Source: Dehalococcoidia bacterium (GTDB taxonomy: Bacteria; Chloroflexota; Dehalococcoidia; GIF9; AB-539-J10). Taken from it: 62,683 bases of DNA. The position numbers and the translations under genes are program-made. Position 1 is the first letter of the stretch. Every line of letters begins with the position of its first letter. Positions 5,182-62,683 of the stretch are shown one piece after another. The stretch spans positions 1-62,683 of the forward strand of contig JAGGZD010000018.1 in NCBI GenBank assembly GCA_021162245.1, read 5' to 3'. Below the pieces are notes generated by a model that was not told the DNA's origin, did not search any database, and was given only the letters and a program-made list of their open reading frames with translations.

Positions 5182-5256
5182 TGGCTCCCCGAGTAGGATT
5201 CGAACCTACAACCTTACGGTTAACAGCCGTCTGCTCTACCATTGAGCTATCGGGGA
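5182..5256 (-). tRNA. tRNA-Asn (GTT), CCA encoded
   Basis: Reverse complement folds as a cloverleaf: acceptor TCCCCGA/TCGGGGA, anticodon loop CTGTTAA, T-arm GTAGG-TTCGAAT-CCTAC, 3' GCCA; 75 nt. Confidence 0.9.
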
Positions 5257-5271
5257 ATCCAGATTAATAAG

Positions 5272-5342
5272 CTGCCGAGCCTGGATTCGAACCAGGGCTA
5301 GAGGATCCAAAGTCCCCCGTGCTACCACTACACAACTCGGCA
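5272..5342 (-). tRNA. tRNA-Gln (TTG), no CCA encoded
   Basis: Acceptor TGCCGAG/CTCGGCA, anticodon loop CTTTGGA, T-loop GGTTCGAATCC; 71 nt. Confidence 0.88.
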
Positions 5343-5355
5343 TCAACTCTCTTCG

Positions 5356-5440
5356 TGCCGAAGGTCGGAGTCGAACCGACACGAGAGTTGCCTCCCAACA
5401 GTTTTTGAGACTGCCGCGTCTACCATTCCGCCACTTCGGC
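5356..5440 (-). tRNA. tRNA-Leu (CAA), long variable arm, no CCA encoded
   Basis: Acceptor GCCGAAG/CTTCGGC, anticodon loop CTCAAAA, long variable arm, T-loop GGTTCGACTCC; 85 nt. Confidence 0.88.
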
Positions 5441-5458
5441 ATGTCTGCTCCCTTCAAG

Positions 5459-5533
5459 TGGAGCGGAAGACGAGATTCGAACTCGCGACCTCTTCCTTGG
5501 CAAGGAAGCATTCTACCGCTGAACTACTTCCGC
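5459..5533 (-). tRNA. tRNA-Gly (GCC), CCA encoded
   Basis: GCGGAAGTAGTTCAGCGGTAGAATGCTTCCTTGCCAAGGAAGAGGTCGCGAGTTCGAATCTCGTCTTCCGCTCCA; anticodon loop TTGCCAA. Confidence 0.92.
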
Positions 5534-5567
5534 ATCCTCAGAGCACAAATTTTTTATGTTGTTAAAG

Positions 5568-5640
<73 letters not shown>

Positions 5641-15073: not shown

Positions 15074-15147
15074 ACGGGGCGTAGCGCAGCCTGGTAGCGC
15101 GCAGCGTTCGGGACGCTGAGGTCGGAGGTTCGAACCCTCTCGCCCCG
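15074..15147 (+). tRNA. tRNA-Pro (CGG), no CCA encoded
   Basis: CGGGGCG acceptor, D-arm GCGC-AGCCTGGTA-GCGC, anticodon arm CAGCG-TTCGGGA-CGCTG, T-arm GGAGG-TTCGAAC-CCTCT; 74 nt. Confidence 0.92.
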
Positions 15148-15379
15148 ATTTATATTTTCACGAAAGTTAATGGCGTTGATTAACTGTCACCTGGCTTCCT
15201 TAGCTCGTCGGGAGTGCCTAGGGAGTGGAATTATCGGGTCATGGTAAATTTTAATTCATCAGGTAAAAGGGATGAATCTGCAGGAAAACCAAAGTTGCTC
15301 AGGGAGTGTTTTCATTGGTAGCCTTAATGGGAATGTGCTCTTCCAGACAAGAATAACATTGCTTAGAGCTACAGGGGTG

Positions 15380-23880: not shown

Positions 23881-25197
23881 TTACTTGATTTTCCAGGCTT
23901 CAATGTTCAGGTTTGGGGGTATTGGCTGTAAACCTCCCTCTCCACCGTTCATGTCTATATGCAGGTTTATTGTACCAGGCTCGTTCGGGCCTCCGGAAGT
24001 CCAAGCCGCAGGAGTCCAGATGGCGATATCACCTGTTTGGATTTCATTACCGTTGTTGCCTTTCACATCTTGGTTAAACGAAAGAAGCAATCGTCCATCC
24101 GGTAGCGGCGTCAGAGCAGTAATATTACGCTCAGCGTTAAGAATAATAGAGGTATCGAGATAGAGGCTGAAGCTAGGACTAGACGGAGGTTCAAATTCGA
24201 TTATCTGGTATGGTTCGAAAGTATCACCGCCGTAATCTGATTTTAACTCAGCTCCCTTGTTGGATAAAGAAAAAAGAACATGACCATTTTCCAACCTGCC
24301 AACGGCAGCTATATCGATGCTCTTGTCAAAATACTGTCTCATGTCGTACACAAGTTCGGCGTGGCCCGACTCTGGATCGCCTGTGCCCAATAAGTGAAGC
24401 CTGATTATGTCATCGTTATCACAATCACAAGGAGGATCATTTGTGCCAACGCTGGGCTTCTCTGGGCTTGCCAGAGATATCAAAAGACACTCGTAGCCCC
24501 CATATTCATAATAATGTACGCCGCCAAAAGTGACCTGATCCCCAAGGCCATACAAAGGACCATCGAGATATGCCGCAGAAAATCCCGTAGTCATATTTAG
24601 TGAATAAAGGTCATTGGTTTTGAGTTGTATGGACTCATCATCCGAATTCCACCCTGTGAATGCCATTGCACCCGAGAGGGTAGTAAAGATTACTGTATCA
24701 TCATCAATAGTACTCAAGGCACCTAGGCATTCTCTCGTTTTAAAGTCCCCACCTTCTCCGCCCGCTGCTACTCCTCCAGAATATTGGGCTAATACACGGG
24801 CTACTACTTCACCCATGGTTTCCCCATCTAACTTAGCAGTAGATTTGATGACATACCTTATGCTATCTTCGGCTATCTGCTCAGCATCCAGTATTTTTAG
24901 TTCCACGTTCATTCCGTTTACCTGCTCACCGAGCGAATAGGAATAATCTTTGGACAGTGGACCGGCATATTTTAGTTTCCATAGAGCATCCTCCACCCCA
25001 GCATCGGCGGCGTAAAGCTCCAGGGCGTCCGTTTCTATGAGCTGCTGGTGCTTTATGCTGGTGGCGGCGTGATTGAGGGTAGGAGCCAGGACGATAGCCC
25101 CCAGAGCCAGCACAATGAGCACCATTATCAGAACTTGCCCATTCTGCTTTCGGTTTATTTCTTTCACTGCTCGTTTAATTCTTTTCAACATTGCCAT
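23881..25197 (-). CDS. PilX-N-like pilus-associated protein with a large uncharacterised C-terminal domain
   Basis: 438 aa. N-terminus KQNGQVLIMVLIVLALGAIVLAPTL resembles PilX_N-type anchors. First gene downstream of two minor pilin genes. Confidence 0.6.
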   Translation of the reverse strand: MAMLKRIKRAVKEINRKQNGQVLIMVLIVLALGAIVLAPTLNHAATSIKHQQLIETDALELYAADAGVEDALWKLKYAGPLSKDYSYSLGEQVNGMNVELKILDAEQIAEDSIRYVIKSTAKLDGETMGEVVARVLAQYSGGVAAGGEGGDFKTRECLGALSTIDDDTVIFTTLSGAMAFTGWNSDDESIQLKTNDLYSLNMTTGFSAAYLDGPLYGLGDQVTFGGVHYYEYGGYECLLISLASPEKPSVGTNDPPCDCDNDDIIRLHLLGTGDPESGHAELVYDMRQYFDKSIDIAAVGRLENGHVLFSLSNKGAELKSDYGGDTFEPYQIIEFEPPSSPSFSLYLDTSIILNAERNITALTPLPDGRLLLSFNQDVKGNNGNEIQTGDIAIWTPAAWTSGGPNEPGTINLHIDMNGGEGGLQPIPPNLNIEAWKIK

Positions 25198-27736: not shown

Positions 27737-30070
27737 CTACTCTATTAAGTAAGCATTCCGTAGTACCTCGGAGGGAGTAGTGATGCCCGCTTTTACTTTC
27801 ATCATGCCGTCCTTAATCAGGAGTGTCAACCCCTCTTCGATTGCCTGTTGCCGAATCCCAGCAGTGCTGGCGCCTTTTAGTATTTGCGTTCTTATTTTAT
27901 CGCTTATGGGTAAAACTTCGAACAGCCCTGTTCTGCCTCTATAACCTGTATAGGAGCACAGCTCGCAGCCATCGCCCTGGAGAAACTCGGTTCGCTCTTC
28001 CCCTGTTTCCCTGGTATAGGCTACTTGTTCCATCAGGGGAACCTGCTGGTAACTGGAGCAATGAGAACAAACACGGCGCACCATGCGTTGAGCCACTACG
28101 CCGATAATCGCTGAGGACACCAGGAAAGGTTCTATTCCCAGGTCAAGCAGACGGAAGACGACGCCGATGGCGTCATTGGCGTGGATGGAAGTGAGGACCA
28201 GGTGCCCCGTCAGGGCGGCCTGAATGGCTATTCTGGCTGTCTCAGCATCGCGGATTTCCCCTACCAGCATGATATCGGGGTCCAGTCGCAGCATGGAGCG
28301 TAATCCGCTGGCGAAAGTAACTCCTGCCCTGGCATTTACCTGGACCTGGTTGATATTGGGGAAGTGGTATTCAACAGGGTCTTCGATGGTAATTATATTT
28401 CGGGATACTTTGTCCAATTTATTCACTGAGGCATAGAGGGTGGTAGTTTTGCCTGAGCCTGTGGGGCCGCTAATTAAAATCATACCAAAAGGAACTTTAA
28501 GCATATCCTCATATTTGCTCAAGGCTTCAGGGGAAAAACCTAGCTGGGGCAAATCTATAATTCCCAGAGATTTATCCAGAAGGCGCAACACCGTCATCTC
28601 CCCATTGACTGTGGGTGATGTGGCCACACGAACATCTATAAACCTTCCCTTGGACTGGGTGGAAAATTGCCCGTCCTGAGGGCGGAGACGGTCAGCAATA
28701 TTCATATCAGCCATTATCTTTATTCTTGAAGTGAGCGGGAGGTGTATTTTCAATGGGAGCGACATAATATCCTGGAGCGCACCATCGATGCGGAAGCGAA
28801 TTCTTAACCTGTCTTCTTCTGGTTCGATATGGACATCGGAGGTTCTGGCTTTAACCGCTTCATCGACAATGAGGCGCAAGGCACTAGCCACAGGAGTATC
28901 CTGGGCAGCTTCAATCAGGCGTTGCTCATCCACTTTCCCTGCATCTACAGGCATGCGGGATATCTGGTCTTCTATTTGTCCGAAACCTTTATAGTTGAAG
29001 TCGATAGCTTCACGAATTTCCTTTTCACTGGCAGCTACAGGATATATTCTCATCTTGCTCTGCGACGCCAGCGCTTCCAGCGCAAAGATGTCAGACGGAT
29101 TTGCCATAGCCACTTGCAGAGCATTATTCACAATAGCCATGGGCATGACATTAAATCTTCTTGCCATGCTTTCGGGAATGAGCTGTAAAACTTCGGGTTG
29201 GTCTATGTGTTTAAGCGCTACTTCTTTCGGCTTGGTTTCGACTTCCGGCGTCGAATCGAGCAATTTTTCAATGGTGTTCTGGAGCTTGGCTGCACTCCCC
29301 TTCTTTTTTGTAGCTGTTTTCGGGGTGCGGTTATCTAGTTCAATAATCTTTATTCTCTGGTGCTCAGCAAACTGCTTAATTTCAGGCGCAATTTTCCCAG
29401 AAACCAGCAGAACCTTTCTTTGAATTCCACAATCATAGGATTTGGTGTCGAACAAGGATATCTGGTTTAAGTTTAATTCATTGCCGCTCAAATCATCTAT
29501 GCCCAGCTTATGAGCTATAAAGCCATCATCCAGGGAAGCCAGGATATCGAAATTGTATTCTGCCCCAGATTTCCCTCTAACTTTGCTGTTCTCCTCAACT
29601 ATATAGCCGAGCTCGCTCAGAATCTGTATTGCCTCGCTTTTTGTCTTAGGATGGAAAGAGGTGTTTTTCTTAGCCTGCCTGGCAGGAAGAGCTGTATCCA
29701 AAAATGCTGTTAGTGTTTTGTCATCGAAGATTCTTATTCGCTGTGCTTCAGCAAAACGTTTGGCCGCAGGCTCAATTCCGGGGAGGGCAATAAGTATTTT
29801 ATCCTGAATGCCACAATCATAACATTTGTCATCAAAGGTGAAGGCTCTACTCAGGCTTATTTCCTGCCCATTTTCATTTTGAGCAATATCTATGGCGACA
29901 GTATAAGTCATAAAGTCGCTGTCGCTACGAGCTAGAATATCGAACGCATGCTGAACGCCAGATTTACCTGTGAGAGAAGCATTTTGTTCCACTTTGTAGC
30001 CCTGCTCTTCAAGCCGTTGCACAAACTGGCTTTTAAGTTGCTCGACTTGTTTTCGTGCTATTTGTTGCAT
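27737..30070 (-). CDS. pilB: Type IV pilus assembly ATPase PilB (GspE family) with an approx. 250-aa N-terminal tandem-duplicated extra domain
   Basis: 777 aa. T2SSE_N-like segment (LIPESMARRFNVMPMA...), Walker A GPTGSGKTTT, Asp/His boxes, tetracysteine CSHC...CELC. Residues 8-120 and 143-247 are clear internal repeats. Confidence 0.92.
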   Translation of the reverse strand: MQQIARKQVEQLKSQFVQRLEEQGYKVEQNASLTGKSGVQHAFDILARSDSDFMTYTVAIDIAQNENGQEISLSRAFTFDDKCYDCGIQDKILIALPGIEPAAKRFAEAQRIRIFDDKTLTAFLDTALPARQAKKNTSFHPKTKSEAIQILSELGYIVEENSKVRGKSGAEYNFDILASLDDGFIAHKLGIDDLSGNELNLNQISLFDTKSYDCGIQRKVLLVSGKIAPEIKQFAEHQRIKIIELDNRTPKTATKKKGSAAKLQNTIEKLLDSTPEVETKPKEVALKHIDQPEVLQLIPESMARRFNVMPMAIVNNALQVAMANPSDIFALEALASQSKMRIYPVAASEKEIREAIDFNYKGFGQIEDQISRMPVDAGKVDEQRLIEAAQDTPVASALRLIVDEAVKARTSDVHIEPEEDRLRIRFRIDGALQDIMSLPLKIHLPLTSRIKIMADMNIADRLRPQDGQFSTQSKGRFIDVRVATSPTVNGEMTVLRLLDKSLGIIDLPQLGFSPEALSKYEDMLKVPFGMILISGPTGSGKTTTLYASVNKLDKVSRNIITIEDPVEYHFPNINQVQVNARAGVTFASGLRSMLRLDPDIMLVGEIRDAETARIAIQAALTGHLVLTSIHANDAIGVVFRLLDLGIEPFLVSSAIIGVVAQRMVRRVCSHCSSYQQVPLMEQVAYTRETGEERTEFLQGDGCELCSYTGYRGRTGLFEVLPISDKIRTQILKGASTAGIRQQAIEEGLTLLIKDGMMKVKAGITTPSEVLRNAYLIE

Positions 30071-30209: not shown

Positions 30210-33200
30210 ATGGGCAAGAGGACATCTCTGGTATTATATCTGGGACTGGTTGCTTTGTTGGCATTACCTGGGTTGCTTCCCTTTATCAGACCTGAACTCG
30301 CTCTGGCTAACCCCGATGAACTGAAGTGGTCTATTGTGGATAGTCCTGGCGAAGAGGGCAATGTTGTAGTTAGCCCCAGTGAAATAAATGCTTTTGCCCT
30401 TGATTCTGAAAATGAAATCTACTATGCACTGGACATTCCCAATGAAATTATCTATAAGTCGATTGACGGAGGCATTACATGGGAGGATGATTTAGCCGAA
30501 GCGCTTCAAAGCGAAGGTGCTATTTTGCCTGCATGGGATATAGCTGTGGCGCCGAATGACCCGGAGTTATTAGCTGTGGTCACCGATGACAGACAGGAGG
30601 TTTATGTTTCCGAGGATGGTGGAGACAGCTGGACAGATATGCAACTTTCAAGTGCCACAGATTGGGATGCAAGCTTGCTCATTTCTGACATTGCCATTTC
30701 TCCGGAATACAGCGGCAATATAGATATCGCCGTGGGCACACGGAATCCAGATAGCTTTAACAACGGCGACGTCTGGGTAATAGAGTCAGAATTCCTTGCT
30801 GTCTGGAAGGCTCAGGAATTGGGACTGGATGTGACGTCAGTTCAATTTTCGCCTGATTACGGGAACGATGAGGCTATACTGGTTGTTGCCAGCGATGCTG
30901 ATAAAACTTATCTTTGCACTGGTATCAGAAATACCGGTGCAAATAGCACGAATTGGGAGGAAACCGATCCACCTAAAGTGGAGATAAGTGAATACAGCGG
31001 GGATTCACCGGGGGAAAGCGAAATTATCTTCTCCGACCTGGCATTGCCCTCTGATTATTCAAGGCTTCAATCCGGGAAACGTATTGTTTATGCTGCTTAT
31101 AGCTCAAACACAACTGCCGACGACGTTTACCGTATCGAAGACAGCGACGTCTTCAGGCTGGATACTAATCGCGGCGATGCAGTTTCTATAGCTTCCATTG
31201 CCTTCCATGGCACTTGCGACGGGGGGAAGTTGCTGGCCGGGGAAGTGGTATCTAAAGCGGATTCAGCTACTGCTTTAATTCACATTTGTTTTGAACCTGA
31301 AGAAGTCTTCCCCGATTGGGAGAAACCTGAAAAGCCACCCACGGGGGGAGCTATTTCAGACAATGCCAATGCTCAAGTTGCCTGGAGCAGTGATGGAGAA
31401 ATGGCTTATTGTGGGACAGGCACTAACCATGTAACGAATGCTAATGAGTGGGCTGACCCTGACAAATGGGCTGGCCAGGCTTATGATGAAAGCGCCTTTT
31501 CCCAAAGCGAAAATGATGGCGATACATGGAACCAGCTATCTCTCATAGACACTATGATGGCGCATCTTTGCGATTATGCACTGCTCACGGACACGGAGAA
31601 TGACGAAGCCCCATACCTTCTTTATCTGGTTTCGGTAAGCAGCAGATTCGACAGTATATGGCGAAGCGAAAGCGAAACACTGGAAACACTGGGGGAAATC
31701 TGGCAAAGAGTATTGTGCTTCGATGGCGCAACCGATGACATAGTTTTGAGGCCTACTCCAGAGGGTAGTCCAGAAGAGGCTATTTTCTTCGCCGCTCTGG
31801 ACAGCGATTACGCCCGCTGTTCAACGGACTATGGGGATACCTGGGAATGGGTCTGGGAATGCCCTCATATCACTGACTTAGCCGTAGTAAGCGACACATT
31901 GCTCTATGTCCTGGATGACAATTTAGTGAACAAGGGTGTATGGGAAGACAAGGACTATGGGGATACCTGGGAATGGGACATGGGTGTGGATACAGGCCTT
32001 CTTTCTGGTTACAGCATATCTACTAGCGGCGAGAATTTTGTTTTCGTTGGGGATGAAGGGGATGAAGGTATAGTTGCTTATTCGGTTGACGGTGGAGTCA
32101 CTTTTGAGCAAACTTTAGCTGTGCCTGAGTCAGAGCCGGGGGAAATATGGGTGATTCCCGACGAAGATTTCGATAACAATAGATTTATTTATGCTGCTGG
32201 CAGTGAAGGTGGAATTTACAGTTGGACTATCGAAGGGAGCACATCGTGGCAGCAATTGACCCCTCCCCATTCAGGATTTTGTGGCCTGACTCAGAGTGGT
32301 GGCGCTCTGTATGGAAATTATGGACCTGGCATTGCCCGTACGCTAATACCACACATGGTAACTATTACCGAAGATGATTGGGATGAACTTACTGTTGGAT
32401 TAGACAGTGGAACTTCCTTCAGAAAAGGTACGCTGAGGGCGGTACGCAATGAAACCATAGATTTATGGGCTATCGACGAGCGAACTTATGATTTTCCCCA
32501 AAGCGAAGGATGCCTATGGGTTTATTCCGACAGCATTGCCTTGCAATCACCATGGCCGACTTCGCCAGCTATAGGGGAATTGCTTCTCTGTGACCCCTGT
32601 GATTGCCATGCCAGAACATTCAGCTTCCGCTGGCGGAAATTACCTTCAACTGAAAAATATGACTTGTGGATATCCCTGGATGAGCAATTTGAATCTGTGC
32701 TGGCTAAAGTAGAGGTATCTCCTGTTGACCTTAGCGACCCTGCCTGCAATTCGCTTGAAATTCCGCTACGCTTTACTTGTGGGGAGATTTACTACTGGAA
32801 GGTGAGAGGCAGCGGCACCGAGGAGGAGAGCATTCATAGCCGCTGGTCGCCGCCAATGAACTTTACTGTAAAAATCTGCTCCTCGATGGGGAGCATGCAC
32901 ATTGCACCTGTAATAGAAGTCCCACAAAGCGACAGCAGCGATGTGCCCAGATCACCTGCTTTCTCCTGGACGGGCTTCTCTCATGCTACAAAGTATGAGT
33001 TTATTCTGGCCAGGGATGTTGACTTAACTCAGATAGTAGTCAGAGAGAAGGTGCCCATATCAGCTTATGTATATAATGGCAAACTCGATTGGGGCACAAC
33101 CTACTTCTGGAGGGTGAAAGCCATCGAGCCTGTTCCCAGTGAACCCAGTGTCATAAGTAGCTTTACCGTAGTGTCAGCGCCAGAGCCAACTGTCCCTGCA

Positions 33201-33305
33201 GCGGCAGTAGTAGCGCCACCAACACCATCCTGGGTATGGTTTATCATTGGCATACTGGCGCTGTTAGACATTGTCATCGTTGTGCTTTGCCTTGTCAGGC
33301 GGTAG
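30210..33305 (+). CDS. Large cell-surface protein: signal peptide, Asp-box (BNR) beta-propeller-like region, two C-terminal FN3-like modules, C-terminal TM anchor
   Basis: Signal LVLYLGLVALLALPG...ALA. Asp-box-like motifs SIDGGITW, SEDGGDSW, SENDGDTW, STDYGDTW, DKDYGDTW, SVDGGVTF. Repeated modules ending YYWKVRG / YFWRVKA. C-terminal WVWFIIGILALLDIVIVVLCLVRR. Confidence 0.75.
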   Translation: MGKRTSLVLYLGLVALLALPGLLPFIRPELALANPDELKWSIVDSPGEEGNVVVSPSEINAFALDSENEIYYALDIPNEIIYKSIDGGITWEDDLAEALQSEGAILPAWDIAVAPNDPELLAVVTDDRQEVYVSEDGGDSWTDMQLSSATDWDASLLISDIAISPEYSGNIDIAVGTRNPDSFNNGDVWVIESEFLAVWKAQELGLDVTSVQFSPDYGNDEAILVVASDADKTYLCTGIRNTGANSTNWEETDPPKVEISEYSGDSPGESEIIFSDLALPSDYSRLQSGKRIVYAAYSSNTTADDVYRIEDSDVFRLDTNRGDAVSIASIAFHGTCDGGKLLAGEVVSKADSATALIHICFEPEEVFPDWEKPEKPPTGGAISDNANAQVAWSSDGEMAYCGTGTNHVTNANEWADPDKWAGQAYDESAFSQSENDGDTWNQLSLIDTMMAHLCDYALLTDTENDEAPYLLYLVSVSSRFDSIWRSESETLETLGEIWQRVLCFDGATDDIVLRPTPEGSPEEAIFFAALDSDYARCSTDYGDTWEWVWECPHITDLAVVSDTLLYVLDDNLVNKGVWEDKDYGDTWEWDMGVDTGLLSGYSISTSGENFVFVGDEGDEGIVAYSVDGGVTFEQTLAVPESEPGEIWVIPDEDFDNNRFIYAAGSEGGIYSWTIEGSTSWQQLTPPHSGFCGLTQSGGALYGNYGPGIARTLIPHMVTITEDDWDELTVGLDSGTSFRKGTLRAVRNETIDLWAIDERTYDFPQSEGCLWVYSDSIALQSPWPTSPAIGELLLCDPCDCHARTFSFRWRKLPSTEKYDLWISLDEQFESVLAKVEVSPVDLSDPACNSLEIPLRFTCGEIYYWKVRGSGTEEESIHSRWSPPMNFTVKICSSMGSMHIAPVIEVPQSDSSDVPRSPAFSWTGFSHATKYEFILARDVDLTQIVVREKVPISAYVYNGKLDWGTTYFWRVKAIEPVPSEPSVISSFTVVSAPEPTVPAAAVVAPPTPSWVWFIIGILALLDIVIVVLCLVRR

Positions 33306-42890: not shown

Positions 42891-43484
42891 TTGAAAATAA
42901 GTAGAACAACCAGGTGGATTTTAACTATTGGCATTCTCGCCATTTTCTTGGCGAGTTTAACTGTGCTTTACCTTCGCCAAACAACGGAGCTAAGATATTT
43001 AAATGCCAGCATAATCCAGGCTCAACAAAATTTTAAAACATACACGACACAGGAAAAGGAGCTGGAGGCAGAGCTCAATCAAGTTGAATCAAGCATTCCT
43101 GCCCTTCCAGGTGAGTTCAGCTCTTCCCTTGAATCCGTAGAGATTAGCGATGCTTTACTTGAAGCCGCCGATGAAGCCAATGTAACCATAACTGAATTCA
43201 GCACTTCGCTCCCCGACAATGAGGAAATAAATGGCATCACTTACCGGGTTGTCTATATCGATCTGACTGCTGAAGGGAAAATGGTGTCGACTCTCAACTT
43301 TGCACAGAAGCTCGGTGACAGGTTTCCCAGCAGCGAAATACAACAGGTAGAGATAGAAGTGACGAAGGTAGGAAATGAAGCGGAGGAAGGGGAGGAAGAG
43401 AAGACCGGGAAAGAGACTGAAGAAGAAAAAGCATCACTCAGTTTAAGTTTAAAAATTTATGCTTACGAGGTCAATAATGGCTAA
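42891..43484 (+). CDS. PilO-like pilus assembly protein (TM + coiled coil + acidic tail)
   Basis: TTG start. N-terminal TM WILTIGILAIFLASLTVLY followed by a coiled coil. Lies immediately upstream of pilM/N. Confidence 0.5.
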   Translation: MKISRTTRWILTIGILAIFLASLTVLYLRQTTELRYLNASIIQAQQNFKTYTTQEKELEAELNQVESSIPALPGEFSSSLESVEISDALLEAADEANVTITEFSTSLPDNEEINGITYRVVYIDLTAEGKMVSTLNFAQKLGDRFPSSEIQQVEIEVTKVGNEAEEGEEEKTGKETEEEKASLSLSLKIYAYEVNNG

Positions 43485-44919
43485 AGAAGTGACTACCATA
43501 TATATAGATGACTCCGCTATCCGGGTATTGAGAAGCAAGGGAAGACAGGTAAGAAAGTGGGCCGATATGCCGCTGGAATCTGGCCTGGTTAAGGACGGAA
43601 CAGTCGTCGACGAGGACGCTGTGGCTGCCAAAATTAAGGAGTTATGGCAGACCCAAAAAATAGGAAGCAGGAAGGTGATAGCCGGCGTCAACGGCATAAA
43701 TTGCCTCTATCGCTTAATCACCCTCCCTGAACTACCCAAAAACATATTGCCCGAAGCAGTGGAAAGAGAAGCCCGCAGAATTTTAGCCATCCCCCTGGAG
43801 CAACTTCACCTTTCCTGGCAAGCTATTCTTACATTGAAAAAAGGAGAAATGCTGGTTTACCTGGCAGCCTTGCCCAGAAATTCCACGGATGGCCTGATTT
43901 CGACGCTACATAAAGCGGGGCTGAATCCTTACCTTATGGATTTAAAGCCCCTGGCCCTGGCCAGGACTATCACCGAAACTAAAGCTATCCTCATCGACGT
44001 TCAACCCGGCAATTTCGATATCGTGATTTTAATGGGCGAAATTCCACAAGTGGTACGCAGCCTGCCATTAGACCGAGAGGCTTCGCTGGACGGGAAAATG
44101 CCCCTCATCAAAGAGGAATTGCAGAGGGCTATCACTTTTTATAACTCCAGCCACCTGGAGGAGCCCATTGAAGCCAGCGTGCCTGTGCTAATCAGCGGGG
44201 AGCTATCCGGGCAGCCAGATAGCTGGGAGCTATTACTTGCAAAGCAAAAACACCCTGTCCAGATACTACCTTCCCCCATGGAGAGCAGTGAAGATTTCCC
44301 CGCAAGCCAATATACAACTAACATTGGCTTAGCCCTCAAGGAAGTGCTGGCCTCAGAGAAAGGAGCCATCGCTTATTCCCTGGTCAATTTCAATGCCCTC
44401 CCTGAAATGTACATTCCCAGGCCTCGCCCTGTATCTGAAATTCTCTTCGCGCCCGTTATCACAATTGGCATTGCCCTGCTGGCTCTGGGCGCTTTCGCTA
44501 ATATCACTACCTTAAACCGTGTCACTGATTCACGCCACAACCTGGCAACTGTACAGCAGATGGCTCTCTCCAGCCACGCTCAAATCGAGCACATAACAGC
44601 TCTCATCGAGGAAGCCTCTTCTACCAAAACCACTGCAGATGCTTTCACCGCCACTCTCAACGATATACATGTCAGCAGGGACGAAATCAATGGCGACCTG
44701 GCTCAGGTAAACAGTTGCCTGTCTGGCGCTATAAAGCCTCCACTCTCTGTAAGCGCTGATGGTGAAGTATTGACAGTGGACGGCCTGGCTGATGATGCTG
44801 ACGCCGTTTTGCACTATGCCAGAGAGTTGAGGGCCACCGGCAGGTTCGCCTCCGTGCTTATTGCCAGCATGAGCCAGCAAGAACAGCAGATAAAATTCAC
44901 CCTGGAGCTCAGTAAATAA
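43477..44919 (+). CDS. pilM: PilM-PilN fusion protein (actin-like ATPase fold + TM + PilN-like periplasmic domain)
   Basis: Start at MAKEV (GAGG upstream). N-terminus IYIDDSAIRVL...GLVKDGTVVDEDAVAAKIKELW is PilM-like. TM at FAPVITIGIALLALGAF, then a PilN-like C-terminal region. Confidence 0.8.
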   Translation: MAKEVTTIYIDDSAIRVLRSKGRQVRKWADMPLESGLVKDGTVVDEDAVAAKIKELWQTQKIGSRKVIAGVNGINCLYRLITLPELPKNILPEAVEREARRILAIPLEQLHLSWQAILTLKKGEMLVYLAALPRNSTDGLISTLHKAGLNPYLMDLKPLALARTITETKAILIDVQPGNFDIVILMGEIPQVVRSLPLDREASLDGKMPLIKEELQRAITFYNSSHLEEPIEASVPVLISGELSGQPDSWELLLAKQKHPVQILPSPMESSEDFPASQYTTNIGLALKEVLASEKGAIAYSLVNFNALPEMYIPRPRPVSEILFAPVITIGIALLALGAFANITTLNRVTDSRHNLATVQQMALSSHAQIEHITALIEEASSTKTTADAFTATLNDIHVSRDEINGDLAQVNSCLSGAIKPPLSVSADGEVLTVDGLADDADAVLHYARELRATGRFASVLIASMSQQEQQIKFTLELSK

Positions 44920-54492: not shown

Positions 54493-55587
54493 TTACACAT
54501 CCTGAAATCGTGGAGCCAGTTTTTTGCTCACCTCTGGCATGGTGGTATATTCCATTTGTTCAAGCGGCAGGCGATGTGGTTCAAAAGGCCCCATGCGTCG
54601 CAAGTAATCAGCTATCTCATTCGCTTGCCGACGAGCTGAATCAAAAGCAGGGTCATCAAAAAGGTCATTAGCACCAATAAGCTTGCCATCTGCTAGCTGG
54701 AAGCCAGCAGCTATTACCCTTGGGGGGCCATCGAAGCGAGTACATTTAGCCTGGTGAAAAGGAACTGGCATCAACGGACCATGATGAGAGCCTCTCATCC
54801 ATCCTTCCACTATATTAGGCGAGGCAAATGGCTCAAGCACTTCTCCCACAGCAGGGAATTTACCCTGAGCCCTGACAATGCAAACAGGGTCATCCTTGCC
54901 TACATATCTTCCCGCAATTAAAGCTAAATGTTGTGTAGAAGAAGATGCAGCAATTTCCCCACTCTCCTTATGGTATACAGCCTTAACAGGATAACGATTT
55001 GGTGCCCCCATGAAAACAAGCATATCGTAAATTTCCTCAGGAGCATCGAAAAAAATCTTCTTTGCCTTTATAACATCATGAATCTCAAATTTAAAGCCGC
55101 CGTGCATGTTGGCTGCAATCACCAGTCCAATAGTATTAAAAGGGTCAGCGAAGATTTTGTACAACGGCAAATTCCAAGCACCCGAAGCCGTCTTATCAGC
55201 CATGAATATTATTATACTTTCAGCTTTACGCTCGGCGAATTGCATCTCAGCTACACCAGGTCCCATCCCCCTGACATTACCAGAGAAAGCGTCGGCTAAC
55301 AGGTCTTGCCCCGCACCATGCAACTTTAATTTCTTAGCCACATTGGTACATTCCACAAAGGTATCCCAGGCTAGTTTGTGAACTTGCTCATTTCCCTCAC
55401 CTTTCTGGTGAGTCATTATCAATTGAAGGTCATCACCACAAACTGTGACGTAGTAATCGATTAACATACCCTGTTCCTTAGCATGCTCCATACTTTCCTT
55501 AGCTCTCTGTATCACATCCGGGTGGGAACTGGAATGCCCCACATAGCCACCAACATCCGCCTTGATAACGCTTAAAGTTATATCCAT
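54493..55587 (-). CDS. fbp: Bifunctional fructose-1,6-bisphosphate aldolase/phosphatase (class V FBPase, archaeal type)
   Basis: 364 aa. ITLSVIKADVGGYVGHSSSHPD start is characteristic of the family. Confidence 0.92.
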   Translation of the reverse strand: MDITLSVIKADVGGYVGHSSSHPDVIQRAKESMEHAKEQGMLIDYYVTVCGDDLQLIMTHQKGEGNEQVHKLAWDTFVECTNVAKKLKLHGAGQDLLADAFSGNVRGMGPGVAEMQFAERKAESIIIFMADKTASGAWNLPLYKIFADPFNTIGLVIAANMHGGFKFEIHDVIKAKKIFFDAPEEIYDMLVFMGAPNRYPVKAVYHKESGEIAASSSTQHLALIAGRYVGKDDPVCIVRAQGKFPAVGEVLEPFASPNIVEGWMRGSHHGPLMPVPFHQAKCTRFDGPPRVIAAGFQLADGKLIGANDLFDDPAFDSARRQANEIADYLRRMGPFEPHRLPLEQMEYTTMPEVSKKLAPRFQDV

Positions 55588-57550: not shown

Positions 57551-58825
57551 CTAATTTACTTTTGGGGTTTTGAGCCTCTTGCCTTTGTATTGTGGTTTCA
57601 TTGATAGAGCTAATTTTTTCTCCCCCTCCGCAGTCTTAACCTCGCCATCCAGTTTCGCTTTATGTAATACCTGGAGGATTTCTCCTAATTCCAGTCCAGC
57701 AGAAAAGCCTAATTTCTTCAGACTATCTCCATTGAGCAATGTCTTTACATGCCTCAATCTAGCTATAAATAGCTCAAGATTAGAACGTGTAGATGAAGAT
57801 TCCGAGGCTATGGCGTTGGCCTGGACAGCTAATGGGTCATATTCACGGAGCAAATAATAAATCTCACTGTGTTTTACAGAGGTCTTACACAGGAGGTGAA
57901 GCCGGCTCTTCAACTGAAGCGTGTCACGAAGCGCTCGAGCCAATTTCGCTGGCACGTTAAGGCGATGAATGAGTCGCTCGCTTTCCTCCTGGCTAAGAGA
58001 ATAAATAAAAAGGCATAGATAAAGTGTGGGTAGTTGACCAGATTTACTTAACAATCGCGCTTTAGAAAACTTCTCAGCTATCCAGCCATTTCCCCTAAGA
58101 GCAGAATTTACTCTCTGTAACACTCCCAGTTCTCCAAGACGCCCAAGGGCAGACTCCGGATGTTTCTCTTTAAGTATCAATTCTAATTCATGCCTTATAC
58201 GGTCGCCACTTATAGTATCCAGCATGGGAATACTCTGTTGAAGCATCTGCAACGTTTGCAATTCAAGTTCAAATCCGAGACGTTGTTCGTAACGGATAGC
58301 ACGGAAAATTCTGGTAGCATCATCCCTAAAACTCCCTGAGTGCAAAATGCGGATGTAACGGCGCTCAATGTCATCGCTGCCTTGAAAAGGATCAATAAGC
58401 TCCCCATGATTACTCGGCACAAGCGATATAGCCATAGCATTGATAGAGAAATCGCGACGAAAAAGATCATCCCTGATAGTCCCATAAACAACTGTGGGCA
58501 ATGCACCTGGTTTGGAATAGGTTTCACACCGTGCTGTAGCTATATCCAAAGTAAAATTGCTATAACCAAGCTTAGCAGTACCAAAACGAGGATGTGTAAC
58601 CAGTCGTAGTTGTCTGGTCTTAGCTATTTGTTGAGCTAATTTCACGGCATCACCCTCAATTACCATGTCCAGGTCGAGGTTAGAATACCCCAAGAACAAA
58701 TCTCGTACCACGCCACCAACAAGATAGGCTTTATGCCCCATTTGGTTAGCTTTCCTGCTAATATCCTCAACTAACTCCAACATTTGCTGAGGCAAATATC
58801 GTTCAATTTGCGAAGCAACGTTCAC
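57551..58825 (-). CDS. cca: CCA-adding enzyme / poly(A) polymerase-family tRNA nucleotidyltransferase
   Basis: GTG start. YLVGGVVRDLFLG...DLDMVIEG head-domain motif, RRDFSINAMA. Confidence 0.85.
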   Translation of the reverse strand: MNVASQIERYLPQQMLELVEDISRKANQMGHKAYLVGGVVRDLFLGYSNLDLDMVIEGDAVKLAQQIAKTRQLRLVTHPRFGTAKLGYSNFTLDIATARCETYSKPGALPTVVYGTIRDDLFRRDFSINAMAISLVPSNHGELIDPFQGSDDIERRYIRILHSGSFRDDATRIFRAIRYEQRLGFELELQTLQMLQQSIPMLDTISGDRIRHELELILKEKHPESALGRLGELGVLQRVNSALRGNGWIAEKFSKARLLSKSGQLPTLYLCLFIYSLSQEESERLIHRLNVPAKLARALRDTLQLKSRLHLLCKTSVKHSEIYYLLREYDPLAVQANAIASESSSTRSNLELFIARLRHVKTLLNGDSLKKLGFSAGLELGEILQVLHKAKLDGEVKTAEGEKKLALSMKPQYKGKRLKTPKVN

Positions 58826-58944
58826 TAGTCATCTTACTCCTAAACTTCTTCAAATCAATTATACCTGAAATCATTATACCATCGCTTTTGCACATCACAT
58901 TCCTCTTTTTTATAGCTACATCAGGGCAGAATCAGCACAGGACA

Positions 58945-58974
58945 TTGACATTATGGCACAAAGCTGTTTACAAT
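58945..58974 (+). promoter_or_regulatory. Candidate promoter for the CetZ-like gene, leaderless-type geometry
   Basis: TTGACA (58945-58950), 18-nt spacer, TACAAT (58969-58974). ATG at 58982 is 7 nt after the -10 hexamer and has no Shine-Dalgarno sequence. Confidence 0.5.
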
Positions 58975-58981
58975 AAACCAA

Positions 58982-60154
58982 ATGAAATTATTAATTATAG
59001 GTTTAGGTCAATGCGGTGGCAGGATCGCTGATAGATTTGCTCGGCTAAACAAGAAGGCACGGTCTATGCGGGGAATTAGTATAATTGCTGATGCCTTCGC
59101 TGTTAATACTGATGTAGCTGATTTGAGTGGGCTACGCACTATTAAATCTGATTACAAACACAGAATACTTGTTGGTGGCCAAAGGACTAATGGCCACGGA
59201 GTAGGTAAGGTAAGTGAACTTGGCGCCGAGATAGCTACGGAAGATAATGATAAAATTATAGATGCTATAAGGACAACAGAGCGGTTCTATGAAACAGATG
59301 CCTTTATGTTGATCGCTTCTGCCTCCGGTGGCACTGGCTCCGGAGCAATAGGGGTAATGACACAGCATCTGAAAGAACGCTATATAGGAAAGCCAGTTTA
59401 CAATATTATTGTTCTTCCTTTCCAGCAAGAAGAAACAACAGAAGCAAGGACTATTTACAACACAGCTATGTGCCTCAAATCCGCATATCTGGTGGCTGAT
59501 GCAATATTCCTTATCGACAATCAGAGATACATCAAAAAGAACTCCCCCGCAGAAAACAACATAGCGACGATTAACTCTCGGGTAGTTGAGCCATTTTATA
59601 ACTTGCTTTGTGCTGGGGAGGAGACAAACAAGAAATATGTCGGATCGAAGACGCTAGATGCAGGGGATATAATACAGACACTGGCAGGCTGGACAGTAAT
59701 TGGCGAAGGCAAATCGTCAATTCGAAGAAAGATGCCTTTGCTTGGACAAGCACGTGATTTCAGAGACAGGATGTCTGAAACAAGCAAAGCTGCTCATGCC
59801 ATGGACGAAGCACTGGGAGAATTATCGCTCACGTGTAGCCCCAAAAATGCTGGAAGGGCTTTGTATCTCGTCACTGCGCCGCCAAGTGAAATGAAAATGG
59901 AAGTAATACAACAACTTGGGGACAATTTAAAGGCTGTGGCTCCAGATGCTTTGACCCGCAGTGGTGATTACCCCAGACAGAAGGGCTCATTGAGCGTTAC
60001 TATGATTCTATCGGATATCAGCAACACGAGGAAAGTCACAAAGTACTTTACTAAGGCAATCGACTTGATTTCTGTTATGAAATCTAAACGCGGGCTGGAG
60101 TACTCAGGCAGAAAGCTTGAAGAGGCTTTCAGCGACATTCCTGTATTACTATAA
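58982..60154 (+). CDS. Tubulin/FtsZ-superfamily GTPase, CetZ-like
   Basis: 390 aa. T1 loop IIGLGQCGG, GHGVG...ELGAEIATED, T4 signature ASGGTGSG (aa 114-121), HLKERY..KPVYNIIVLP, FLIDNQRY (tubulin/CetZ-like DN motif), IIQTLAG, C-terminal SGDYP. Confidence 0.8.
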   Translation: MKLLIIGLGQCGGRIADRFARLNKKARSMRGISIIADAFAVNTDVADLSGLRTIKSDYKHRILVGGQRTNGHGVGKVSELGAEIATEDNDKIIDAIRTTERFYETDAFMLIASASGGTGSGAIGVMTQHLKERYIGKPVYNIIVLPFQQEETTEARTIYNTAMCLKSAYLVADAIFLIDNQRYIKKNSPAENNIATINSRVVEPFYNLLCAGEETNKKYVGSKTLDAGDIIQTLAGWTVIGEGKSSIRRKMPLLGQARDFRDRMSETSKAAHAMDEALGELSLTCSPKNAGRALYLVTAPPSEMKMEVIQQLGDNLKAVAPDALTRSGDYPRQKGSLSVTMILSDISNTRKVTKYFTKAIDLISVMKSKRGLEYSGRKLEEAFSDIPVLL

Positions 60155-60267
60155 GCAGTCTTCTAAACTTGCACACAGCAAAATATCAGGTATGACTCCC
60201 TACTAGCCATTAAAAGGCAAACTGGTGTACGGCATGACTAAAGAGAGTGTTTGACTTGTGACCCTCC

Positions 60268-60657
60268 CTATTTCCTGGCTTTAACAAATACCGCCCATGT
60301 CCGCTCCAGAGCCTCTTTACGGGATTCTCGAGCTTTCATTTCAGCCTCTTCACTTATCCTCAGTGCACGGCTTACGCTACTCTCGAAAGTTTTCCTAGCC
60401 TGGGCTATACTTTCCTCACAGCTCTTCCTGGCTCGTTCTACAACTTCATCATATACCTTATTTGCCTGTCGCTCTTGCTCTTTATAAGCTTCTTCTAACT
60501 GACGTTGAGCTTCCAAGTAAGCCGTATAGGCAGCAGCAGCTCGCTGCTGAGTTTCACTAAGAAAATCAACAGTCTGTTCAATTTTCTTAATGTCCTTCTT
60601 GCCTTTTTGCTCAGTTCCCCCTTTATCCGCAACAAAAACTTGCTCTGGCTCTGGCAT
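60268..60657 (-). CDS. Small Glu/Lys/Ala-rich coiled-coil protein, unknown function
   Basis: 129 aa. Helical-repeat composition similar to the upstream 543-aa gene. 70 nt downstream of it on the same strand. Confidence 0.6.
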   Translation of the reverse strand: MPEPEQVFVADKGGTEQKGKKDIKKIEQTVDFLSETQQRAAAAYTAYLEAQRQLEEAYKEQERQANKVYDEVVERARKSCEESIAQARKTFESSVSRALRISEEAEMKARESRKEALERTWAVFVKARK

Positions 60658-60727
60658 AATATACCTCCTTTATCACTGAACCTCTATTCTATCTCTTTCA
60701 CCAAAAAGAATCTACCTTCGCTTCTAT

Positions 60728-62359
60728 TCAATCTTGTTCTATCTCATCTCTGTCCACAGCTTCCTCCTCAACATACTCATCTTTACCCGCCATATACATT
60801 CGAGCTAAGAAATCCAAGCGCGATTGGACATCTCTCTTAGAATCCACTAGTTTTTTCTTCTCTTTTTCACCGCCCTCAGGTTTACGTAAGGCTTTCTCAA
60901 ATATCTTTAATGGCACTTCAGGGGCCTCCCCTTTGGGGATCTCCTTTGCAATTCCTCCACCCGTTTTCTCAGTTCCACCTACCGCTTTTTCAAAGACCCG
61001 CATTGATGCTTTTGCAGCTCTCCTAGCCGATTTGGTTGTTGCCTCAGCCACAGCAATCGTCTCTCCAAATGCCTTTATCGATGTCATAACAGCCTCTCTA
61101 GCTATCTCTATCGATTTTTCAGTAATCTCTGCAATTATCCGTTTGGACTCATCAGTAACCTCTGCAGTTTCTTGGCCTATTCCCTCAGCTTTGCTTATTG
61201 CTTCCTGAGATGCTTTCTTTGCTTCCTCAGCAGACGCTTTAGCCATTCGGCTTATTTCCTCAGCCTTGCTTATTGCTTCTTGGGATATTCTTGCTGCTTC
61301 TTCGACAGATATTCTAGTCTCTCGGCTTATTTCCTCAGCCTTGCTTATTGCTTCCTGGGATGCTTTCTTTGCTTCCTCAGCTCTACTTGCCGCTTCTTGC
61401 GATGTTCTTGTTGCCCTCTCAATAGCCTCTTCGGCCAATCTAACTGATTTCTCAGCTTCGCTTACCGCCCTCTGCGATGCTTTTATTTGTGTTTTAGCCT
61501 CTTTTCGGGTCATTTTGATTACTTCATTAGCTTTATCTATAGCCTCTTTGAATGAAGTTGCTGAAGTGGCAGCAGATTCATTAGCCAAGCGGCTTACATT
61601 TTCAGCCTTATTTATCGCTTCCCTAAATGCTCTTGTTGAGGCTTCAACAGATTCCGTAGTTGCCTGGCTTATTCTCCCAGTTCTATCTACTGCTTCCTGA
61701 GATGCTCTTTCCGATTCTCTGGCAGACTTCACAATCGCTCGGCTCAATTTCTCAATTCTACTTATGGCCTCCCTGGATGCTTTTCTCGCCTCCTCAGCAG
61801 TTTCTATAGCTGTCTGGCTTACCTTCTCAGCTCTATCTACTGCTTCCAATGATGTCTCTTTAGCATTCTCAGCAATTTCTATCGCCGTCTGGCTCACCTT
61901 CTCAGCTCTATCTACTGCTTCTTGGGATGTTCTTAGTGATGCCTCGGCAGATTCATTACTTGATTTGGCCAACACCTCAATCCTGGCCACAGCTTCTTCA
62001 AATGCTTGCGTTAACGCTTTAGTGGAATCCATAGCCGATTTGACCGATGCCTCAGCTTTGTTTATCGCTTTACGGGATGATCTTCTCGCCCCTTCAACAG
62101 CCTCTGTAGCCGCCTGGCTTACTTTCTCGGCTCTATCTACTGCTTCCTGAGATATTCTCTCCGATTCCCTGGCAGTCTTTTTGGCTGCTCGACTTATCTT
62201 CTCAATTCTATCTATAGTTTCCTGAGACGCCTTTCTCGATGCTTCAGCAGCTTGTTTGGCTACATAGCTTAGCCTCTCAGCTTCGGCCACCGCCTGTTCA
62301 AATGTCCCAATATCAGCTTTCATATTCTTCAAGGATTCAGGGGACTTGTTCCACTCCAC
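60728..62359 (-). CDS. 543-aa alpha-helical repeat protein (about 17 x 25-residue repeats) with acidic C-terminal tail, unknown function
   Basis: Repeats such as EAVDRAEKVSQTAIEIAENAKETSL / EAVDRAEKVSQTAIETAEEARKASR / EAISKAEEISRMAKASAEEAKKASQ. GTG start uncertain, no clear Shine-Dalgarno sequence. Confidence 0.75.
   Translation of the reverse strand: MEWNKSPESLKNMKADIGTFEQAVAEAERLSYVAKQAAEASRKASQETIDRIEKISRAAKKTARESERISQEAVDRAEKVSQAATEAVEGARRSSRKAINKAEASVKSAMDSTKALTQAFEEAVARIEVLAKSSNESAEASLRTSQEAVDRAEKVSQTAIEIAENAKETSLEAVDRAEKVSQTAIETAEEARKASREAISRIEKLSRAIVKSARESERASQEAVDRTGRISQATTESVEASTRAFREAINKAENVSRLANESAATSATSFKEAIDKANEVIKMTRKEAKTQIKASQRAVSEAEKSVRLAEEAIERATRTSQEAASRAEEAKKASQEAISKAEEISRETRISVEEAARISQEAISKAEEISRMAKASAEEAKKASQEAISKAEGIGQETAEVTDESKRIIAEITEKSIEIAREAVMTSIKAFGETIAVAEATTKSARRAAKASMRVFEKAVGGTEKTGGGIAKEIPKGEAPEVPLKIFEKALRKPEGGEKEKKKLVDSKRDVQSRLDFLARMYMAGKDEYVEEEAVDRDEIEQD
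61040..62300 (-). repeat. In-frame tandem 75-nt (25-codon) repeat array inside the 543-aa gene
   Basis: TCTATCTACTGCTTC at 61682, 61832, 61907 and 62132 (spacings 150, 75, 225). CGGCTTATTTCCTCAGCCTTGCTTATTGCTTC at 61248 and 61323 (spacing 75). 61793-61847 vs 61868-61922 differ at about 4 positions. Confidence 0.85.
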
Positions 62360-62405
62360 AAAGACTAAAGATTTCTATACCCCGTTTTCATTTCCACTAA
62401 GTTTA

Positions 62406-62435
62406 ATTTTAATAGGAGTTACCTGGTTTTTTCAA
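62406..62435 (-). promoter_or_regulatory. Candidate promoter for the repeat-protein operon
   Basis: Minus strand TTGAAA (62435-62430), 18-nt spacer, TAAAAT (62411-62406). Confidence 0.35.
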
Positions 62436-62683
62436 CATATGACGCAAAAATCGGAGGCAAAGTAGGCAAGCACCTACATCTCCAAGTCCTATTATTCATT
62501 TTTACCGACAATGGTTTTTAGCTCTCAGTTTAGTTTGGATTTCCTAAACCCTGAGTGTTTCTCCTCTTCACGCTCTGCTTAATGTTACGTCTTGCCTGAT
62601 GATGTAGTCAAGGTAAAGTCTCCTCCAATACAAGATGAGCCTGAAGAGGGTATCGAATTCTAACGCAAAATGAGCCTAAGAGG

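Follow-up and report, generated by a model that had tools for sequence, protein, structure and literature searches.

To our knowledge, CetZ proteins are the only members of the tubulin superfamily shown to control cell shape in prokaryotes, and they count as an invention of the archaea. Here we describe a CetZ-like GTPase gene from a bacterium, Dehalococcoidia bacterium, together with two conserved neighbors, which we call p129 and p543. The DNA studied is a stretch of 62,683 nucleotides (assembly GCA_021162245.1, contig JAGGZD010000018.1, positions 1 to 62,683 of the forward strand), hereafter the window.

Several earlier studies touch on bacterial genes of this kind. A survey of 2023 lists CetZ-like proteins in the Chloroflexota-Dehalococcoidia and terms them "sparse paraphyletic groups"; it discusses coiled-coil neighbors for archaeal tubulin-like genes only and is silent on the partners, promoter, and function of the Dehalococcoidia proteins (Santana-Molina et al. 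2023, PMC9871819). In Dehalococcoides mccartyi 195, the ftsZ gene DET0343 adjoins ftsA (DET0342), and the genome carries the extra "FtsZ" genes DET0589 and DET0636 (PMC5102406). In D. mccartyi BTF08, an "FtsZ/tubulin GTPase," btf_0551, has been detected as protein and is abundant in disc-shaped cells of the pure culture, as is the product of a nearby hypothetical gene, btf_0548, and both are lower or absent in barrel-shaped cells of the co-culture (PMC8163811). Among the genomes examined by Wiegand et al., those of Dehalococcoidales and SAR202 keep mraZ-mraW-ftsA-ftsZ and lack peptidoglycan genes, and basal Dehalococcoidia retain the dcw cluster (Wiegand et al. 2023, PMC10608941). A literature search found no paper linking bacterial CetZ-like genes to partners or to cell shape. 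Genes of this kind had thus already been mentioned; new here are the three-gene module, the signature residues of its clade, the conservation of the T7 acids and of a C-terminal DIPxLL tail, a conserved leaderless promoter and, as a hypothesis, a tie to wall-less lineages.

The CetZ-like protein and its family

The gene and the parts of its product discussed below are as follows.

58982 to 60154, forward strand: gene for a CetZ-like tubulin/FtsZ-superfamily GTPase of 390 aa plus stop, identified from its open reading frame, Pfam and PDB matches, and fold
58988 to 59533, forward strand: N-terminal GTP-binding domain, residues 3 to 184 (Pfam PF00091), with T1 GLGQCGG, T3 GHGVGK, T4 ASGGTGSG, and T6/H7 DNQRY
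59561 to 60061, forward strand: C-terminal CetZ_C domain, residues 194 to 360 (Pfam PF21011), including the T7 loop and GDYP
59657 to 59668, forward strand: acidic pair D226-A-G-D229 of the T7 "synergy" loop, corresponding to CetZ1 D215..E218 in a pairwise alignment to PDB entry 4b46
60128 to 60151, forward strand: extreme C-terminal tail F-S-D-I-P-V-L-L, residues 383 to 390, conserved and preceded by a linker of low model confidence

Profiles, sequence matches, and predicted fold support a CetZ-like member of the tubulin/FtsZ superfamily that is not FtsZ. The GxGxxG T1 loop and the [SAG]GGTG[SA]G signature of T4 place the protein in the superfamily, and Pfam recovers Tubulin (PF00091) on residues 3 to 184 (E = 6.8e-33) followed by CetZ_C (PF21011; E = 8.8e-17, 61.6 bits vs. 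a cut-off of 21.6), the latter covering profile positions 8 to 179 of 180. FtsZ_C is not among the Pfam matches at E ≤ 1, no Tubulin_C match was reported by Pfam, and Tubulin_2 (PF13809) was not significant there (E = 0.94, 9.1 bits vs. a cut-off of 27). The score against the NCBIfam ftsZ equivalog TIGR00065, 52.8 bits, lies far under the cut-off of 295.2. Ranking of PDB sequences by phmmer tells the same story, with CetZ1 (4b46) on top over its full length (E = 2e-44) and CetZ2 (4b45; 1.2e-27) and Methanosaeta CetZ (3zid; 1.6e-16) next, whereas the best FtsZ reaches only 1.9e-9 and matches to tubulin and BtubA/B, at about 7e-8 or weaker, cover at most query residues 72 to 240.

Structure prediction, which an earlier note on this DNA had proposed along with profile searches, gives a consistent picture. 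An AlphaFold (AF2) model built from alignment A2 (50 sequences including the SAR202-type clade, 35–93% identity to the window protein) has a predicted local distance difference test score (pLDDT) of 77.3 and a predicted template-modeling score of 0.83. Its best Foldseek matches in the PDB are CetZ1 (E = 2.6e-24, target-normalized template-modeling score 0.86, root-mean-square deviation 3.4 Å) and CetZ2 (E = 4.7e-23, target-normalized score likewise 0.86), and FtsZ structures begin at 2.8e-18, about six orders of magnitude weaker than CetZ1. A previous model from a shallow alignment (21 sequences, 65–93% identity) had a pLDDT of only 59; both models rank CetZ1, CetZ2, and Methanosaeta CetZ on top.

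The earlier note, made from the sequence alone, had read this gene as encoding a 390-aa protein with tubulin/FtsZ GTP-binding loops that resembles CetZ rather than FtsZ, and the open reading frame, the motifs, PF00091, CetZ_C, the TIGR00065 score, and the PDB and fold rankings all bear this out. Every motif that it quoted occurs in the translation: GLGQCGG at residues 7 to 13, AVNT..ADL.GL at 40 to 51, GHGVG...ELGAEIA.ED.D at 71 to 90, ASGGTGSG at 114 to 121, HLK..Y..PVY....LP at 129 to 146, FLIDNQRY at 176 to 183, IIQTLAG at 230 to 236, and GDYP at 328 to 331. Of the interval that it gave, 58945 to 60154, the end is correct but the start is not, since 58945 is the first position of a promoter −35 box and the gene starts at 58982.

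In our tree the protein falls beside the archaeal CetZ proteins and not among them. A search of 1.84 billion cluster representatives returned 827 proteins at E ≤ 0.001, and a neighbor-joining tree was computed from 82 full-length sequences (379 trimmed columns, 100 bootstraps), with the CetZ1 and CetZ2 sequences recovered from the PDB-hit alignment and a hand-entered E. coli FtsZ sequence as outgroup. CetZ-like proteins divide into two groups in this tree. The window protein sits in a clade of 38 sequences (bootstrap 80), in which every named member is from Dehalococcoidia, Chloroflexi/Chloroflexota, or SAR202, and CetZ1 and CetZ2 sit in the other, whose named members are Nitrososphaerales, Bathyarchaeia, and Thermococci; because taxon names cover a minority of tips, this reading of the clades draws on the named members and one further homolog search. 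On this neighbor-joining tree with few named tips, the window protein appears as sister to the archaeal CetZ group, and we therefore call it "CetZ-like" and not "CetZ." The assignment in the earlier note thus stands as to CetZ-likeness, but in the tree the protein lies outside the canonical archaeal CetZ clade.

The two clades also differ at individual residues. In a column comparison of 81 CetZ-like sequences (38 of clade A, to which the window protein belongs, and 43 of clade B, the CetZ1/CetZ2 side), clade A is marked by GQCGG in T1 vs. archaeal GQAGG, GHGVGK (K76) in T3, Ala or Ser replacing the first T4 glycine, LPF..EE in T5, DNQR(Y/F) vs. DNDAW in T6/H7, and LDAGDII in T7. The window protein shares with Haloferax volcanii CetZ1 and CetZ2 (4b46, 4b45) the Tubulin plus CetZ_C architecture, the best fold match, the motifs GHGVG, DN, T7 D..(D/E)II.TLAG, and GDYP, a short hydrophobic C-terminal tail, and about 35% identity over the full length (an estimate from the PDB alignment). 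It differs from both in its bacterial host and its separate clade with signature residues of its own, and from CetZ1 in a shorter M-loop.

Compared with other families, the protein is almost certainly a member of the Chloroflexota-Dehalococcoidia CetZ-like group of Santana-Molina et al., with which it shares taxon and a CetZ_C-type C-terminus, its named homologs being from Dehalococcoidia and Chloroflexota. What differs from that description is the scale and coherence seen here: at least 557 loci, one neighbor-joining clade, and conserved partner genes. The claim of a CetZ-like gene in a bacterium is real, but the surprise is smaller than the earlier note had assumed, since the group was already present in PMC9871819 and in work on D. 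mccartyi. With bacterial FtsZ the window protein has in common the superfamily, the GTPase fold, two acidic residues in T7, and, at the C-terminus, a D-I-P-x-hydrophobic peptide; the profile results and a gene context other than dcw or ftsA set the window protein apart. FtsZl-1 (Tubulin_2), TubZ, BtubA/B, and tubulins share the superfamily GTPase domain; a PF13809 score below cut-off, partial and weak PDB matches, and a non-plasmid context distinguish the window protein from them.

Catalytic residues are conserved. D229 aligns with CetZ1 E218 (pairwise alignment, 4b46), the residue altered in the GTPase mutant E218A (bioRxiv 10.1101/2024.04.08.588506). Across alignments A1 and A2, which together cover 35–93% identity to the window protein, D226 and D229 never vary, and neither do the T4 core G116–G121 and N180 of T6. 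The T7 acidic column holds D or E in 38/38 clade A and 40/43 clade B sequences, and the protein thus has the acidic residue predicted to activate GTP hydrolysis in a neighboring subunit.

The extreme C-terminus is likewise constrained. In A1, F383, I386, P387, and L389 never vary, and the last two remain invariant in A2, which takes in both Chloroflexota subgroups; in the AF2 model the linker before the tail falls to a pLDDT of 51 (residues 371 to 380). Many remoter CetZ-like proteins close with a similar (D/E/G)(I/L)PxL(L/F), and MAFFT places the DIPxLL tail on the DIPAFL peptide of E. coli FtsZ (again the hand-entered sequence). Alteration of the CetZ1 tail, LESLF, abolishes rod formation (bioRxiv 10.1101/2024.04.08.588506), and the window protein appears to keep a conserved hydrophobic C-terminal tail as in the CetZ family. 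One position departs from the common pattern: the codon at 59324–59326 encodes Ser (S115) instead of the first Gly of the T4 "GGGTGSG" signature. Ala or Ser occupies this position in 30/38 clade A sequences, and Gly in 38/43 of archaeal clade B.

Promoter, chromosomal context, and partner genes

The remaining features of the locus are as follows.

58945 to 58974, forward strand: sigma-70-type promoter with −35 box TTGACA (58945–58950), 18-nt spacer, and −10 box TACAAT (58969–58974), matching 11/12 consensus positions
60268 to 60657, reverse strand: p129, encoding a 129-aa all-helical protein, convergent with the CetZ-like gene; conserved partner gene
60728 to 62359, reverse strand: p543, encoding a 543-aa protein made of alpha-helical repeats (25 residues each, about 18 copies); it shares its strand with p129 and lies upstream of it
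62406 to 62435, reverse strand: promoter-like site TTGAAA-N18-TAAAAT upstream of p543, 10/12, a consensus match only

Homologs of p129 and p543 accompany the CetZ-like gene and are found nowhere else in the loci that we searched. Scanning a single genome for each GTDB species confirmed at least 557 CetZ-like loci, and neighbors were counted on the best 80. By tblastn, 71/80 loci have p129 and/or p543 homologs no more than 5 kb from the CetZ-like gene; although the loci extend to as much as 21 kb, all 202 high-scoring segment pairs of the two proteins fall inside that distance and none outside it. At loci with at least 70% identity, 37/37 carry at least one partner and 35/37 carry both, one of the remaining two being at a contig end. 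p129 is directly downstream in 36/37 GTDB loci at this identity, and many of the loci near 60% also have it next to the CetZ-like gene. Unlike p129 and p543, the housekeeping genes upstream are kept only at the closest loci (93% identity). Coiled-coil neighbor genes dedicated to genes of the window type are thus a further difference from CetZ1 and CetZ2.

Among loci of the clade with roughly 60% identity, the p129-p543 pair lies downstream, or upstream and divergent, and 26 loci hold two or three CetZ-like paralogs. In 15 loci of the Dehalococcoidaceae type, two paralogs flank the pair, one convergent and one divergent; in locus L053, for example, one CetZ-like gene (5734–6909) converges on p129 and p543, and a second (10001–11173) points away from them. 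Tandem CetZ-like copies occur at six other loci, with three copies in some.

Neither partner family rises above any curated cut-off in Pfam, NCBIfam, or PDB sequences, and the two share no significant similarity with each other (E about 0.05). p129 orthologs range from 126 to 248 aa and keep a QQRA..AYAAYIEAERQ motif and a W..F.KARR ending; p129 homologs come only from Chloroflexota or from metagenome sequences without a taxon name. Shifted by 25 residues, p543 has an identity of 0.35 to itself, and its hydrophobicity recurs with a period of 3.57 (25/7). Its full-length orthologs of about 460–800 aa are conserved at both ends, with an N-terminus (FEQAVAEAERLS) in which orthologs keep FE.AVARAE.LS, and a C-terminal RLDFLARMY followed by an acidic tail. 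This spread of lengths suggests that repeat number changes readily. At the DNA level, the p543 gene contains 75-bp tandem repeats (61166–61379 and 61741–61934, 76–86% matches), which fit the 25-residue repeat. One p129 homolog is labeled "phage shock protein A" by JGI; we dropped this label, as the window p129 and five orthologs gave no PspA-family match.

More distant relatives of the SAR202 type have another arrangement. Their CetZ-like genes encode 418–422 aa at about 37% identity, and the next gene downstream, in the same orientation, encodes a Pfam-less single-pass membrane protein (loci L087, 8001–10248; L088, 8001–10246; L089 and L090, 8001–10272). From a short N-terminus in the cytoplasm, this protein passes through a single transmembrane helix and a linker rich in Pro and Ala to an outer domain rich in beta structure. 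It is an alternative candidate partner, possibly a membrane anchor.

Expression of the CetZ-like gene appears to be leaderless in the subclade of the window. Within the region scanned (58700–62683, scored out of 12 consensus positions), TTGACA-N18-TACAAT is the top match; its −10 box ends 7 nt before the ATG of the CetZ-like gene, and no Shine-Dalgarno sequence precedes that ATG. A near-consensus promoter placed for a leaderless mRNA, as the earlier note had proposed, is therefore what the window contains, and its layout is conserved: a −35/−10 pair ends 6–9 nt before the start codon in 39/39 distinct upstream regions from loci with at least 70% identity, and a Shine-Dalgarno-like motif occurs in only 1/39. 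These counts support a leaderless design as a probable conserved trait of the subclade. Below 70% identity, the promoter lies 25–39 nt upstream in 32/33 regions where one was found, and a Shine-Dalgarno-like GAGGTG motif is present in 40/43 regions. On the other strand, TTGAAA-N18-TAAAAT could drive p543 and p129 as one operon. The 113-nt convergent gap (60155–60267) contains no intrinsic terminator or stable fold (z-score +1.4 vs. shuffled sequence).

The contig is bacterial, and a mis-assembly is excluded. On one side of the CetZ-like gene lie ksgA, ispE, and cca, with dnaN also nearby, the very neighbors that the earlier note had named; they are confirmed by Pfam annotation of the closest loci, where the CetZ-like protein is 93% identical to that of the window and three neighbors are 87–89% identical. 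Gene order at those loci (plsX-acpP-fabG-fabF-fabG, dnaN, ham1, FBPase_3, ksgA, ispE, cca, the CetZ-like gene, the 129-aa gene, the 543-aa gene, secDF, mutL) is the same in four independent assemblies from ENA, JGI, and GenBank. GC content stays between 0.43 and 0.52 over the window in 2-kb bins, with no break at the CetZ-like gene. The best 80 of the at least 557 loci all come from Dehalococcoidia, Dehalococcoidales, or Chloroflexota metagenome-assembled genomes, and relatives sit on Dehalococcoidia contigs of up to 1.0 Mb, including the complete chromosome CP070810, and, for the SAR202 type, on contigs of up to 4.7 Mb. The archaeal mis-assembly that the earlier note had allowed for is thus ruled out by even GC, four matching assemblies, and the long contigs of relatives. 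The 62,683-nt window contains no second tubulin-fold gene.

Other genes in the window include those for RNase Y, GyrA, aspartokinase, RnfC, PilB/PilM, and FabF. Another archaeal-flavored gene near the CetZ-like gene encodes an FBPase_3-type fructose-1,6-bisphosphate aldolase/phosphatase (54493–55587, reverse strand; PF01950 in a 93% locus), of an enzyme family typical of archaea and deep-branching bacteria. Six tRNA genes are present, five of them (Asn, Gln, Leu, Gly, Phe) in a cluster of about 460 nt (5182–5640, reverse strand) and a lone tRNA-Pro at 15075–15148 (forward strand). Four more genes lie at 27737–30070 and 23881–25197 (reverse strand) and at 43459–44919 and 30210–33305 (forward strand). 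They are the type IV pilus genes for a PilB-like T2SSE ATPase and PilM, a gene for a 1031-aa protein with just a weak match to Sortilin/Vps10-type repeats, and a 437-aa open reading frame with no Pfam match. These could be surface proteins of an envelope of the surface-layer (S-layer) type.

Proposed function and alternatives

We lean toward a reading in which the CetZ-like GTPase, native to a bacterium of the Dehalococcoidales (Chloroflexota), probably forms, with p129 and p543, an envelope-associated, GTP-driven filament system that works beside canonical FtsZ/FtsA in wall-less cells. The gene would be transcribed from its strong promoter into a leaderless mRNA, and the N-terminal domain of the product would bind GTP through loops T1–T6. 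As subunits join head to tail, D226 and D229 in the T7 loop of each would reach into the nucleotide pocket of its neighbor, so that hydrolysis, and hence turnover, would be coupled to polymerization, as in FtsZ, tubulin, and CetZ1. The flexible linker would offer the C-terminal F.DIPxLL peptide as a docking site, and filaments would act with the 25-residue repeats of p543 and with p129 as an envelope-associated cytoskeleton determining or altering the shape or the envelope organization of S-layer cells without peptidoglycan, leaving division to canonical FtsZ/FtsA. The data establish the family and fold of the protein, its conserved catalytic and tail residues, the bacterial origin of the gene, its linkage to p129 and p543, and the layout of its promoter; that the protein polymerizes, binds the two partners, associates with the membrane, and acts on cell shape is inferred. 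Also in favor of the proposal are the ftsZ-ftsA pair that D. mccartyi keeps besides its extra "FtsZ" genes (PMC5102406), its counterpart in Dehalococcoidales and SAR202 genomes without peptidoglycan genes (PMC10608941), and, as an indirect correlation with shape, the abundance of btf_0551 and btf_0548 in disc-shaped BTF08 cells (PMC8163811).

Several observations weigh against this proposal. Gene linkage suggests a functional tie with p129 and p543, which need not be binding. SAR202-type relatives have their own neighbor in place of the coiled-coil pair, which is therefore not universal in the bacterial clade. btf_0551 and btf_0548 are only candidate orthologs of the CetZ-like gene and its partners, and the correlation with cell shape in the BTF08 proteome also takes in canonical FtsZ (PMC8163811). 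Finally, S115 occupies the position of CetZ1 G108, where the substitution G108S abolishes function (bioRxiv 10.1101/2024.04.08.588506), and for this reason the kinetics of nucleotide turnover may differ from those of CetZ1.

An alternative that differs mainly in cellular output is a cytoskeletal organizer with no part in shape, which, with p129 and p543 as adaptors, would remodel the membrane or position envelope machinery, for example respiratory complexes or type IV pili. Long helical partners are typical of scaffolds, SAR202-type relatives are paired with a membrane protein, and the function of Haloferax CetZ1 is read out by motility as well as by rod formation (bioRxiv 10.1101/2024.04.08.588506). 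However, the locus offers no specific cargo, p129 and p543 being the sole conserved neighbors, and we regard this role as unlikely, although only its output distinguishes it from the filament system proposed above.

A second or replacement FtsZ, acting at the division ring with its DIPxLL tail bound to FtsA or SepF, seems improbable. Databases often label the CetZ-like protein "cell division protein FtsZ," and its C-terminal peptide resembles the DIPxFL motif of FtsZ, but the TIGR00065 and FtsZ_C results speak against this role, the gene is not beside ftsA or mraZ/mraW, and its closest characterized relatives, CetZ1 and CetZ2, are reportedly not division proteins. The drop in its D. mccartyi abundance together with that of FtsZ when a ring-shaped septum persists (PMC8163811) fits a division role; against it, canonical ftsZ-ftsA is retained in Dehalococcoidales (PMC5102406, PMC10608941).

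Two remaining explanations are effectively excluded. Among bacterial relatives of tubulin other than FtsZ, TubZ is the best known, and a TubZ-like GTPase for DNA segregation of a plasmid, phage, or other mobile element would be one way to account for a gene of this superfamily here. Its chances are very slight: the CetZ-like gene lies among chromosomal housekeeping genes, local synteny is conserved across at least 557 loci in species-representative genomes, gene calls give no TubR-like gene, integrase, or repeat centromere nearby (no search for centromere repeats was made), and the 2023 survey, although it places TubZ near CetZ, found that the CetZ_C model matches Chloroflexota proteins and not TubZ (PMC9871819). 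Least credible of all is an artifact of assembly or binning that put a piece of archaeal DNA into a bacterial contig, an idea that could appeal only to the archaeal origin of the nearest characterized relatives and that runs against the assembly, GC, and contig evidence above and against the bacterial sigma-70 promoter of the gene itself.

The envelope-associated filament system that we favor can be extended into a bolder and more doubtful scenario. The CetZ-like GTPase, p543, and p129 might constitute an undescribed bacterial cytoskeleton that arose a single time, through an ancient exchange with archaea in one direction or the other, in the forebear shared by Dehalococcoidales and SAR202, and that replaced shape control by MreB and peptidoglycan. 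If true, this would make these organisms "archaeal-style" bacteria, with an S-layer and a CetZ skeleton, in a lineage reported to have lost peptidoglycan.

Since bacterial CetZ-like genes are already known in the literature, the value of this locus lies in the module and the hypothesis and not in discovery of the gene. A large, vertically inherited bacterial clade indicates that a CetZ-type system crossed the domain boundary, and p129 and p543 are the first candidate CetZ-associated factors. The named Dehalococcoidales and SAR202 lineages of the clade are those reported to lack peptidoglycan while keeping FtsZ/FtsA (PMC10608941). The module therefore offers a candidate explanation, open to testing, for the maintenance and change of shape in Dehalococcoides, whose cells are disc-shaped and covered by an S-layer.

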